Shown: positions 19,543 through 21,136 of the stretch, piece after piece
Position numbering within the stretch: position 1 is the stretch's first letter
Layout of the letters: each line of letters starts with the position of its first letter
IMG/VR virus record: IMGVR_UViG_2667528074_000001
DNA from: a virus
Lineage: Duplodnaviria > Heunggongvirae > Uroviricota > Caudoviricetes
Length of the DNA: 21,136 nt
Reading direction: 5' to 3' (one strand)
The notes under the pieces: model-generated
What the model saw: the letters and a program-made list of their open reading frames with translations, nothing else
Databases searched by the model: none
Told to the model about the DNA's origin: nothing
Translations under genes and position numbers: made by a program

Positions 19543-19755
19543 ATGAAAAATACTATTTCAAAAGGATTTCACCGGACAGGCGTTCTGTTGGCTATTTTGG
19601 TGTTGATGTTGAGCTTTGGTTTCTTTTTATTAACAGGTGCTGGTACAGGAATCTCGTTATTTGCTGTATTAGTTTCCCTGGTATGTGCCTTACTGACATA
19701 CGGCATACTCAGACTGGTCGGATGGGCCGTTAACGGATTCATAAAAGATAACTAA
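19543..19755 (+). CDS. Small membrane protein (70 aa, two predicted TM helices), moron-like, opposite orientation to the late operon
   Basis: ATG 19543 preceded by GGAGA (6-nt spacer). Sequence MKNTISKGFHRTGVLLAILVLMLSFGFFLLTGAGTGISLFAVLVSLVCALLTYGILRLVGWAVNGFIKDN. Followed by the stem-loop at 19765..19789. Locally AT-richer than the flanking structural genes. Confidence 0.55.
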   Translation: MKNTISKGFHRTGVLLAILVLMLSFGFFLLTGAGTGISLFAVLVSLVCALLTYGILRLVGWAVNGFIKDN

Positions 19756-19764
19756 AACATTATC

Positions 19765-19789
19765 GCAGCCCCTCAGTGTGAAGGGCTGC
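19765..19789. terminator. Stem-loop between convergent genes (putative bidirectional intrinsic terminator)
   Basis: Plus strand GCAGCCCCTCA-GTG-TGAAGGGCTGC: an 11-bp stem (one mismatch on the plus transcript, a G-U wobble on the minus transcript), followed by moderately U-rich sequence on both strands. Lies between the stops at 19755 (+) and 19801 (-). Confidence 0.55.
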
Positions 19790-19800
19790 TGTAATGCCTG

Positions 19801-20193
19801 TTACTCACGAATCAGGCGAGCACTCTTACCATTCATTTCAATACGCGAATACTGCGGTTTACCATCAATGATGTCTGTCATTACGAACACCTCACCCGGC
19901 TGCAGTTCAACTGCACCTTCCGGTAATTTCATACCGGCAAATACCGGACAGCCCGGATGGCGATCATCTTCTGTTGCTTCCAGCATTGACTCACCAAACC
20001 ACGCCGTTGTAGCGCGACCATCAGCAGCCTTGTAGTGGATCAAGTACTGGTTTTCGCCATCCGCATACTGCGCGCGGGCTTTAACCTCACCCCATTCATC
20101 ACTGATGCGCATCTCCACCAGTTGTGACAGTTCAAACTTAAACGGAGCAGCCACAGCACCAATTACCATTGGTTTGTCTTCTTTCTTTTCCAT
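19801..20193 (-). CDS. Hypothetical protein (130 aa), function unknown
   Basis: ORF track 19801..20244; start placed at ATG 20193..20191, preceded by AGGAGA (5-nt spacer). Acidic, soluble-looking, no recognisable motif. Followed by the 19765..19789 stem-loop. Confidence 0.65.
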   Translation of the reverse strand: MEKKEDKPMVIGAVAAPFKFELSQLVEMRISDEWGEVKARAQYADGENQYLIHYKAADGRATTAWFGESMLEATEDDRHPGCPVFAGMKLPEGAVELQPGEVFVMTDIIDGKPQYSRIEMNGKSARLIRE

Positions 20194-20367
20194 TATCTTC
20201 TCCTGATATCGAAACCCGTCACCGCCCCGGGCGCTGATCAACATTTGAGTATTCGCGGCGACAGAAAGAATTTATTTTATTGAGTAGCAAAAAACACAGA
20301 ATTTCATGCTTTCCGGACACTGGCGTATCCTTCATTTTTCAGCAAAATATTCTGCTCTTACAGGCGA

Positions 20368-20550
20368 TCAGTTCTGCATGCACTGCCGGACACCGTCGAC
20401 AATTTCACAGACCTGAGAAGCTGTATCGAAAAACTGACGCGCCTTATCCAGGCTGACGCATCCCACCAATAAAAAAGGCACCAGTATCGCTACCAGTGCC
20501 CATTTCGCCGCCGTTCGCGGCATTCTGTGTGTCCAGTGTTTTCGCTTCAT
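20368..20550 (-). CDS. Putative small lipoprotein (60 aa)
   Basis: ATG 20550..20548 (MKRKHWTHRMPRTAAKWALVAILVPFLLVGC...). Basic N-region, hydrophobic core and a lipobox-like LVGC, followed by a ~30-aa mature part with two more Cys. The ORF track's longer form starts at TTG 20565. Confidence 0.5.
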   Translation of the reverse strand: MKRKHWTHRMPRTAAKWALVAILVPFLLVGCVSLDKARQFFDTASQVCEIVDGVRQCMQN

Positions 20551-20554
20551 CTCG

Positions 20555-20689
20555 CTATCCACCAATCAATCCGGATAAGCTCAATACTCGCCAGGCGGTG
20601 GAAATGAAAATGGCAACCAACATTGCTGAAAATGAAAGGCCAACAACCACACAGAGAATTCGCGCCAGTTTTATAATGCTATCTGACAT
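20555..20689 (-). CDS. Small single-TM protein (44 aa)
   Basis: Internal ATG 20689..20687 of track ORF 20555..20782. Sequence MSDSIIKLARILCVVVGLSFSAMLVAIFISTAWRVLSLSGLIGG. SD-like AGGGGT upstream. Ends 4 nt before the lipoprotein ATG. Confidence 0.4.
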   Translation of the reverse strand: MSDSIIKLARILCVVVGLSFSAMLVAIFISTAWRVLSLSGLIGG

Positions 20690-20706
20690 ATTTACCCCTG
20701 CCCCAC

Positions 20707-20853
20707 TTACGATTTCACAGCAATGATCAATTTTGCCATCCCATACAGCATCGGAGACACAGCGATACCGACCGCCACCCACTTAATGGCAAAAGCCACC
20801 GCTCTGCTGATGTCATCAGTTACAGGCGCTTTCAATTCAAGGCCGTTTTTCAT
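20707..20853 (-). CDS. Small protein with hydrophobic C-terminal half (48 aa)
   Basis: Internal ATG 20853..20851 of track ORF 20707..20889 (MKNGLELKAPVTDDISRAVAFAIKWVAVGIAVSPMLYGMAKLIIAVKS), GAGG 7 nt upstream. An alternative ATG at 20889 is preceded by AGGAGA with a short spacer. Ends 17 nt before the next small ORF. Confidence 0.35.
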   Translation of the reverse strand: MKNGLELKAPVTDDISRAVAFAIKWVAVGIAVSPMLYGMAKLIIAVKS

Positions 20854-20926
20854 AGTCAACCTCAACAGAATTAGTTTATACTTCCTCATGTTCTCCTTTG
20901 CCTTACCCAGGGCCAGAAACAGAAAA

Positions 20927-20956
20927 CCCCGGGCTGTTACCGCAGCCGGGGTTTTT
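20927..20956. terminator. Intrinsic terminator-like hairpin with T5 tract (bidirectional)
   Basis: Plus strand CCCCGGGCTG-TTACCG-CAGCCGGGG followed by TTTTT (9-bp GC-rich stem with one bulge). On the minus strand the same hairpin is followed by TTTTCTGTTTCTGG, about 100 nt downstream of the partial gene stop at 21050. Confidence 0.6.
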
Positions 20957-21049
20957 GCTATCTGATGCTATGCCCCTTACTTTCGCTCATCGTAGCCCCA
21001 GAAAAGAGCCTGCATGAGTTGAGGGTGTTCAGCACTTCAGTGTCAGTTT

Positions 21050-21136
21050 TTAAACCACCACGCGCTCTTTCATCCAGCCATAGACAAACGACTCATTGGC
21101 CTCGCGTTTCTCTGCCAGCTCCAGATAACGCTCGCC
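21050..21136 (-). CDS. 3' end of an unidentified gene entering from beyond the window end (last 28 codons)
   Basis: Minus-strand frame open from 21136 to TAA at 21052..21050: ...GERYLELAEKREANESFVYGWMKERVVV*. Too short to assign; possibly the last gene of the lysis or regulatory module. Confidence 0.3.
   Translation of the reverse strand, partial: GERYLELAEKREANESFVYGWMKERVVV

Follow-up and report, generated by a model that had tools for sequence, protein, structure and literature searches.

A predicted lipoprotein gene that alternates with Rz/Rz1 in prophage lysis cassettes, and its possible role in outer membrane disruption

We analyzed a 21,136-nucleotide (nt) stretch of Caudoviricetes DNA (IMG/VR record IMGVR_UViG_2667528074_000001; referred to in full as the window), and in particular three short open reading frames (ORFs) near its end, numbered ORF1, ORF2 and ORF3 in minus-strand reading order. 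All three are genuine protein genes on the minus strand, and ORF3, which encodes a predicted lipoprotein precursor of 60 amino acids (aa), and the spanin genes Rz/Rz1 are alternatives in one slot of the lysis cassette. On balance, and with moderate confidence, we favor the reading that ORF3 is an orphan lysis lipoprotein for the outer-membrane step and that ORF1-3 are the distal end of the lysis cassette. The homologue of ORF3 in phage phiP27 was already predicted to be an outer-membrane spanin (o-spanin). What is new, we argue, is that its proposed partner is spurious and that ORF3 represents an orphan family that alternates with Rz/Rz1 and is common in Escherichia coli prophages.

Three minus-strand genes behind the endolysin gene

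The three genes and the elements next to them are listed here by their window coordinates.

21050..21136, minus strand: 3' end of the endolysin gene (last 28 codons, the gene being cut by the window edge), ending in GERYLELAEKREANESFVYGWMKERVVV and the stop codon
20917..20956, minus strand: G+C-rich, intrinsic-terminator-like hairpin and U-tract in the interval between the endolysin gene and ORF1 (AAAAACCCCGGCTG-CGGTAA-CAGCCCGGGG followed by TTTTCTGTTT)
20707..20889, minus strand: ORF1, 60 aa from an ATG (MRKYK); small membrane protein, charged at the N-terminus, whose hydrophobic segment is C-terminal
20555..20689, minus strand: ORF2, 44 aa; single-pass membrane peptide
20368..20550, minus strand: ORF3, 60-aa lipoprotein precursor with lipobox LVGC and Cys31
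20461..20550, minus strand: ORF3 signal peptide, with a long basic n-region (MKRKHWTHRMPR), a hydrophobic core and the lipobox LVGC
20371..20460, minus strand: ORF3 mature 30-aa peptide (CVSLDKARQFFDTASQVCEIVDGVRQCMQN)

Spacers of 17 nt and 4 nt separate ORF1 from ORF2 and ORF2 from ORF3, respectively, and there are Shine-Dalgarno (SD)-like motifs for ORF1 Met1 (GGAG), ORF1 Met13 (GAGG), ORF2 (AGGGG) and ORF3 (GGTGGA). An initial annotation, made from the letters of the window, had described these ORFs, spacers and motifs, and we recovered each of them where it had been placed, with the exception of the start of ORF1. There the annotation had a 48-aa product beginning at 20853; the frame was right, and the start probably was not. 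ORF1 probably begins at 20889, outside the end coordinate given earlier, and we prefer this 60-aa form because the N-terminal motif KYKxxxLRL, upstream of Met13, is conserved in a 48%-identical variant (ORF1').

The evidence for coding came from 245 related loci, gathered by homology to ORF1-3 from IMG/VR, GenBank phages and E. coli genomes (for relatives of ORF2, the query was a 3-sequence alignment). The minus-strand frame was intact in every distinct allele (30-32 for ORF1, 23-31 for ORF2 and 60-63 for ORF3). The ratio of nonsynonymous to synonymous variation (pN/pS, NG86) was 0.28 for ORF1, 0.34 for ORF2 and 0.22 for ORF3. Mean BLOSUM62 scores of the amino acid replacements were +0.85, +0.60 and +0.37, in the same order, for the sense frame and negative for the other five frames, and synonymous variants were scattered over the whole ORF3 gene, signal peptide included. 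PGAP calls all three ORFs, as 'hypothetical', in E. coli genomes. Each also has a match among the PHROGs (phrog_1115 at 4e-41, phrog_4906 at 2e-19 and phrog_7528 at 8e-38 for ORF1, ORF2 and ORF3), in every case to a family of unknown function.

The initial annotation had also raised the possibility that the same DNA should be read as two plus-strand ORFs, 20496..20726 and 20723..20965. That these are the true genes, or that the minus-strand ORFs arose by chance, is almost certainly wrong. The antisense frame is open over ORF2 in all alleles and over ORF1 in 27 of 30, with a pN/pS of 0.40-0.57, but it shares its third codon positions with the sense frame and so inherits part of the signal, which accounts for both the openness and the intermediate ratios. 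Replacements in the antisense frame are non-conservative (mean BLOSUM62 -0.30 to -0.83, versus +0.37 to +0.85 in the sense frame; over ORF2, where the antisense frame stays open, -0.36 versus +0.60). The ends of the plus-strand ORFs shift with context (41-80 aa, with GTG, TTG or ATG starts), and over ORF3 the antisense frame is broken in 59-62 of the 60-63 alleles. Homologue alignment, the check that had been suggested, thus placed conservation at the protein level on the minus strand, and we rejected the plus-strand reading.

ORF3 and Rz/Rz1 are alternatives in one slot

The window comes from the late region of a lambdoid prophage of the type of phiP27, a phage carrying Shiga toxin (Stx) 2e, and it is colinear with phiP27, gene for gene, from the lysis genes to the tail fibers. 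In relatives, the genes after Q include, in order, a 130-aa holin, a 92-aa holin, the endolysin, ORF1-3, a 115-147-aa ORF, an HNH gene and terminase. The part of the endolysin within the window matches, at 93-100% identity, the C-terminal end of a product annotated in three loci (L001, L002 and L247) as 'glycoside hydrolase family 108 protein' (GH108), and its full-length relatives are of the GH108 plus PG_binding_3 type. Deletion of the 130-aa holin of such a cassette abolished antibiotic-induced Stx2e release from porcine Shiga toxin-producing E. coli (PMC12571312).

After de-duplication we counted 145 distinct cassettes. ORF3 was found in 86 of them and Rz in 59, and both were found in one. 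In this one cassette (L147 = L219), ORF3 lies 0.8 kb beyond Rz1 and is a pseudogene, with a 1-nt insertion and two in-frame TAG codons. The main arrangements were as follows, where SAR stands for signal-arrest-release.

SAR lysozyme / ORF1 / ORF2 / Rz-Rz1: 33 distinct cassettes (and 4 with Rz detected without Rz1)
GH108 / ORF1 / ORF2 / ORF3 (the window type): 30 distinct cassettes
M15 endolysin / ORF3: 30 distinct cassettes
SAR lysozyme / Ant / ORF2 / Rz-Rz1 (Stx phages): 14 distinct cassettes (and 2 with Rz detected without Rz1)
endolysin / ORF1' / ORF3: 13 distinct cassettes
GH108 / ORF3: 2 distinct cassettes
endolysin / ORF2 / ORF3: 2 distinct cassettes

In every cassette ORF3 comes after the endolysin, either directly or behind ORF1/ORF2, and the type of endolysin tracks the outer-membrane gene: GH108 and M15 endolysins always occur with ORF3, and the SAR lysozyme always occurs with Rz/Rz1. 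The gap between the M15 endolysin and ORF3 is 17 nt in 26 distinct cassettes, and in L025 the GH108 and ORF3 genes overlap as ATGA. Diverged relatives of ORF3 have the same neighbors. In 6 of 6 contigs they lie 0-10 nt past an endolysin gene (M15_4, GH108 or phrog_465), or overlap it, and in all six a holin gene (Phage_holin_3_1, or holin_8 plus holin_3_7) comes before the endolysin. Rz/Rz1 was not found in any of these six cassettes.

These arrangements bear on two suggestions of the initial annotation. It had listed a lysis accessory set as one possibility, and the ORFs do sit in a phage lysis cassette straight after the endolysin, with the lipoprotein in the spanin slot. It had also proposed a co-translated, membrane-associated module of three. 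The coding strand and the association with membranes held up, and obligate co-inheritance did not: ORF3 stands alone after the endolysin in more than 30 cassettes, and ORF1 plus ORF2, or ORF2 alone, precede genuine Rz/Rz1 in Stx phages.

Two further kinds of neighbor were seen around ORF3. Other variable small genes in the slot between the endolysin and ORF3 (L074, L053, L013, L045) encode a soluble protein of 93-116 aa (phrog_33497), a tail-anchored membrane protein of 65-79 aa and an HNH/AP2-like protein of 163 aa. In two diverged cassettes, a conserved acidic ORF of 72-83 aa (phrog_9518) overlaps the 3' end of the ORF3-like gene by 14 nt (L249 4176..4394; L252 481..732, +).

The ORF3 family is small, and profile searches, both word-indexed and exhaustive, found it in Enterobacterales only; its members form 158 clusters when grouped at 90% identity and 23 when grouped at 50%. 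Of 5426 complete genomes, 957 matched at least part of an 801-bp region of the cassette (20200..21000 in the window, with ORF1-ORF3 and flanks), and ORF3 was found in just 5 of 50,697 phage records. In Actinobacillus phage vB_Apl-pPE4 (PP818812.1, 20079..20329), ORF3 and its flank have 93% nucleotide identity to E. coli prophages; the recorded host is Actinobacillus pleuropneumoniae, an odd label given this closeness.

Signals for expression were examined over the same region. There was no sigma-70-like site on the minus strand between 19000 and 21136, and an Rfam scan of the whole window returned no match. The hairpin between the endolysin gene and ORF1 has a predicted energy of -29.7 kcal/mol (RNAfold; z = -2.5), and ORF1 is preceded by a hairpin of this form whether the endolysin is a GH108 enzyme, a SAR lysozyme or an M15 enzyme. 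These hairpins are of two stem types that differ in inner-stem sequence and align out of register. Because there is no minus-strand promoter-like site and a terminator-like hairpin lies upstream, we infer that ORF1-3 are expressed only from the antiterminated late transcript.

The same observations bear on whether the three genes are instead lysogenic-conversion passengers (morons). In that case ORF3, like Bor, Cor or Llp, would be a lipoprotein for exclusion or envelope modification, while ORF1 and ORF2 would serve in superinfection exclusion or host modulation; none would have a role in lysis, and the phage would simply lack an outer-membrane-disruption function. Approximately 13% of phages of Gram-negative hosts have no recognizable spanin. 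The junction between endolysin and packaging genes gathers Ant, the 93-aa ORF, the 65-aa tail-anchored ORF and the HNH-like ORF, ORF1-3 combine mosaically, and in lambda bor adjoins Rz/Rz1. We nonetheless think it unlikely that these genes are morons. They have the orientation of the late operon and no promoter-like site on the coding strand, the hairpin is upstream rather than downstream of them, and the ATGA overlap or 17-nt gap behind the endolysin is too small for a promoter. ORF3 alternates with Rz/Rz1 and is decayed where Rz/Rz1 is present, and its synteny with holin and endolysin genes is kept in relatives with three endolysin types. There was no match to the Bor, Cor or Llp families or to any PADLOC or Pfam model. 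For the same reasons (no minus-strand promoter-like site, a hairpin upstream and coupling to the late operon), the exclusion lipoprotein that the initial annotation had mentioned is disfavored.

The ORF3 peptide and the search for a spanin partner

In the lipobox of ORF3 (LVGC), Cys31 is followed by Val at +2 and Ser at +3, and the Gly-Cys pair is invariant in the 21-45 aligned members. ORF3 is predicted to be exported, lipidated at Cys31 and, given Val at +2, sorted to the outer membrane by Lol. Of the cysteines, Cys31 and Cys48 never vary and Cys57 hardly does; Cys48 and Cys57, which may form disulfide bonds within or between molecules, have the spacing C-x8-C, which is C-x9-C in a second subfamily (for example, CVSLEKARNWFGVAADVCDTVKKIKDRCNDRK). 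Across the family, conservation covers the n-region HWTHR...PR, the lipobox, an amphipathic helical stretch and the two extra cysteines. It is stronger in the signal peptide than in the mature part, even though synonymous variants occur there. Over the family the mature peptide has a net charge of -3 to +2. Its helical moment is 0.54, and 75 of 2000 shuffled sequences reached this value. For the three ORFs, scans with Pfam, NCBIfam and PADLOC gave nothing usable, and PHROGs gave only families with no assigned function. A profile search of 1.84 billion representative proteins returned 23 clusters, all of the ORF3 family, with no bridge to a known family.

The coding region of the ORF3 signal peptide contains a terminator-like hairpin followed by T6 (window 20476..20501, minus strand). 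We considered it as the cause of the conservation of the signal peptide; synonymous variants fall within the hairpin, and it is therefore probably incidental.

We looked for an inner-membrane spanin (i-spanin) that could act with ORF3 by scanning complete phiP27 and a complete prophage of the window type (L247) in six frames with all start codons. ORF3 was the sole lipobox ORF in both, and neither had a late-operon ORF with an N-terminal transmembrane domain (TMD) and, after it, at least 35 hydrophilic residues. The PGAP annotation names no spanin. Neither the window nor the 2.5 kb on either side in 7 of 8 other loci contained an ORF for an i-spanin-like product, which would be a type II inner-membrane protein with a coiled-coil domain in the periplasm. 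In the eighth (L253, 3461..3895, plus strand), a protein of 144 aa that has a TMD at its N-terminus and a helical tail (phrog_6169, function unknown) is encoded 245 nt downstream of a diverged ORF3 relative; it is the only i-spanin-like neighbor among the eight loci.

A partner has been proposed for the phiP27 homologue. Kongari et al. (2018, BMC Bioinformatics 19:326) classified phiP27, as a bioinformatic call, as a 'separated' two-component system with a singleton o-spanin family, the i-spanin at 20348..20542 and the o-spanin at 20706..20861. The latter is the ORF3 homologue read from an internal Met. The conserved gene in phiP27 (NC_003356; L004/L246) is 20679..20861, and L32 of the GenBank record (20630..20785) is in the wrong frame. 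The called o-spanin and ORF3 belong to the same family, with 92% identity, the same lipobox, a 30-aa mature peptide and the same position past the endolysin. They differ in that the phiP27 protein was paired with a 64-aa i-spanin, a partner that is missing from the window and from about 85 other distinct cassettes. The 64-aa ORF has a TTG start and no PHROG match, and it lies inside an approximately 480-bp insertion that is unique to phiP27 among the loci, so that it occurs in 1 of the 86 ORF3 cassettes. It is antisense to a 90-aa ORF (20332..20604, minus strand) that matches phrog_36812 over its full length (5e-20). From these properties the published phiP27 i-spanin looks spurious.

We also weighed a miniature two-component spanin, in which ORF3 as o-spanin and a small i-spanin (ORF2, ORF1 or the phiP27 64-aa ORF) would fuse the membranes as Rz/Rz1 do. 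The listing of the phiP27 homologue as an o-spanin speaks for it, as do the 4-nt spacer that couples ORF2 to ORF3 and the conserved periplasmic cysteines, which are typical of spanins. We regard it as very improbable all the same. More than 30 distinct cassettes have ORF3 straight after the endolysin and none of these partners, the phiP27 ORF has the defects described above, and ORF2 is also found upstream of full-length Rz/Rz1. A complex that spans the periplasm, made from ORF3 with ORF1 or ORF2, is not credible, because ORF2 would have at most 11 residues outside the membrane and the hydrophilic part of ORF1 is N-terminal and basic. At most 30 + 11 residues would be available, compared to a minimum combined periplasmic length of 62 residues among the 528 systems surveyed by Kongari et al., a minimum that is phiP27 itself. 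Nor does ORF3 resemble a unimolecular spanin like T1 gp11, as its mature form is 30 aa long and has no hydrophobic C-terminal segment. We also considered whether ORF2 and ORF3 might be fused by a +1 frameshift, for which there was no supporting signal.

Compared to lambda Rz1, ORF3 has a similar size and place. Both are outer-membrane lipoproteins (predicted, for ORF3) with precursors of about 60 aa, both are encoded by the last gene of the lysis cassette, in the same slot of related cassettes, and both have conserved periplasmic cysteine(s). The initial annotation had remarked that the lipoprotein lacks the Pro-rich character of Rz1, and this was borne out: ORF3 has no proline-rich region and no match to Pfam Rz1. 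In addition, the ORF3 gene is neither embedded in nor overlapping a gene for a type II membrane protein, no i-spanin was found for it in the scans above, and ORF3 is predicted to be helical and amphipathic, unlike the unstructured Rz1.

In size and build, ORF3 may most resemble the colicin lysis proteins, a likeness of how it might work and not of family membership. Colicin lysis proteins, or bacteriocin release proteins (BRP), are made as a 47-aa precursor that yields a 28-aa mature outer-membrane lipoprotein and permeabilize the envelope alone, through activation of OmpLA; the signal peptide is itself active, and a terminator just upstream of the gene limits dosage (PMC2896534). In ORF3, likewise, the mature form has 30 aa, the signal peptide is better conserved than the mature peptide, and a terminator-like hairpin precedes ORF1-3. 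However, none of 44 ORF3 members matched Pfam Lysis_col at E <= 10, ORF3 is located in a phage late operon with holin and endolysin rather than in a colicin operon, and its signal peptide, in which the basic n-region is long, has 30 aa, compared to 19 aa in the colicin lysis proteins. A second comparison is with phiKT gp28, the 'disruptin', a cationic antimicrobial peptide used in place of a spanin and shown to break the outer membrane with no bridge across the periplasm. ORF3 is also a small amphipathic peptide from a phage with no canonical spanin, and outer-membrane breakage of this kind is what we propose for it. In contrast to gp28, which is strongly cationic and not a lipoprotein, mature ORF3 is close to neutral and predicted to be lipid-anchored.

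ORF1, ORF2 and a model for the last lysis step

ORF1 and ORF2 have one hydrophobic segment each. Database relatives of ORF1 form 121 clusters, all 'hypothetical' and from Escherichia or Salmonella. Homologues of ORF2 were found in 276 phage records, mostly Stx1 and Stx2 phages, directly upstream of Rz and often unannotated. The start and stop of ORF2 are conserved in three contexts, and the gene invariably lies 2-7 nt upstream of Rz or ORF3 (the spacing to Rz covering this same 2-7 nt range). Since a hairpin of the same form precedes ORF1 in three endolysin contexts, the hairpin, ORF1 and ORF2 behave as a portable insert upstream of whichever outer-membrane gene is present. ORF2 also has an allele, in L134, L131 and five other loci (7-8 copies), in which the C-terminal half is frameshifted with no change in total length (...LVALRLDDVVFVGDAGVRGI), as if by two compensating indels.

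The two in-frame starts of ORF1, at 20889 and 20853 on the minus strand, are 12 codons apart; both are conserved, Met13 (ATG 20853) together with its own GAGG motif, and each has an SD motif. The long form adds four basic residues. A dual start of this kind is known from the lambda S gene, which makes the holin and antiholin forms S105 and S107.

This likeness is one of the points in favor of ORF1 and ORF2 being a holin/antiholin-like or small-toxin pair on the inner membrane, independent of ORF3, that might control when lysis occurs or work as a type I toxin. Both are peptides of 44-60 aa with a single hydrophobic segment within a lysis cassette, and there are precedents for extra small membrane proteins in lysis: Lcc6 of the Shewanella phage LambdaSo and the gp25 releasin of Mu, single-TMD proteins of about 65 aa, are required in lysis beyond holin, endolysin and spanin. 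We view such a pair as possible but doubtful. Neither precedent is related in sequence to ORF1 or ORF2; the Lcc6 gene is distant from the lysis genes, and its product has a cytoplasmic tail of 43 aa. ORF1 and ORF2 are optional in the cassettes. No homology to holin, Lcc6-type or toxin families was found in Pfam, NCBIfam, PHROG or PADLOC. The cassettes already have one or two holins, and many ORF3 cassettes do without ORF1 and ORF2. A small-toxin system had been among the possibilities of the initial annotation. It is disfavored by the lack of a promoter-like site on the minus strand, the upstream terminator-like hairpin and the tight coupling to the late operon; ORF2, in particular, has neither a promoter of its own nor an Rfam antisense RNA, as would a type I toxin like Hok or Ldr, and it never stands alone.

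In the model that we favor, with ORF3 as an orphan lysis lipoprotein, ORF1-3 would follow holin A, holin B and the GH108 endolysin on the late transcript that Q antiterminates, and would be read from it. ORF3 would be exported, lipidated and sorted to the outer membrane as predicted above, and its 30-residue, near-neutral, amphipathic peptide with two cysteines would carry out or assist the final step. This step, the task of Rz/Rz1 in related phages, would be breakage of the outer membrane after removal of the cell wall by the endolysin, and ORF3 would act without an inner-membrane partner that spans the periplasm. Because its size and build are closest to those of the colicin lysis proteins, a local perturbation of the outer membrane seems more likely than membrane fusion, and the signal peptide might contribute. 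ORF1 and ORF2 would be small inner-membrane proteins that, with the hairpin, form the portable insert before the outer-membrane gene. ORF2 would be translationally coupled to the gene that follows, ORF3 or Rz. Our guess is that ORF1 and ORF2 adjust when, or at what dosage, the last step of lysis takes place.

Several points weigh against this model. The case for ORF3 is built entirely on position and conservation. The loci were collected through homology to ORF1-3, and the counts are therefore a biased census of lysis cassettes; the ORF3 pseudogene beside Rz/Rz1 represents one lineage. ORF3 has no sequence similarity to Rz1, the colicin lysis proteins or entericidin, and AlphaFold2, given ORF3 and 44 homologues, yielded a single long helix of low confidence (pLDDT 69, pTM 0.31). 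The slot between endolysin and ORF3 is in part a hot spot for morons, and ORF3 could be a passenger that became fixed there. Finally, an i-spanin may be encoded far away, or may be a host protein. One such protein could be L13 of phiP27, a 142-aa protein with an N-terminal TMD that is encoded in the immunity region, on the opposite strand and outside the late operon.

A broader and more tentative proposal, which we put forward with less confidence than the assignment of ORF3 to lysis, is that the ORF3 family is a third kind of outer-membrane disruption beside spanins and cationic disruptins: a stand-alone, lipid-anchored peptide of about 30 residues that does not bridge the periplasm and that would complete lysis by holin and endolysin, a phage counterpart of the colicin lysis proteins present in hundreds of E. 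coli prophages, with ORF2 as an unrecognized regulator of the final lysis step. The phiKT cationic peptide is the sole worked alternative for phages with no recognizable spanin. The ORF3 family would provide a second testable case, in E. coli itself, and because ORF3 alternates with Rz/Rz1 in related cassettes, the lambda Rz-am Rz1-am complementation assay is directly applicable. It would also correct the published two-component call for phiP27 and a reference annotation in the wrong frame. ORF1 and ORF2 are in the lysis cassettes of most sequenced Stx phages, where lysis controls toxin release, and they are unnamed and often unannotated. If the proposal is true, ORF2, just upstream of Rz in these phages, would bear on the release of Shiga toxin.

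Two other features lie between the ORF1-3 block and the packaging genes. A 70-aa ORF with two TMDs (window 19543..19755, plus strand) is oriented opposite to the late operon, between a 147-aa ORF (19801..20244, minus strand) and the HNH gene. It is not present in phiP27. Homologues with 56-67% identity keep the same place and orientation in seven other loci, and the ORF therefore looks like a moron. A terminator-like hairpin (19765..19789, minus strand) lies directly past the 147-aa ORF.

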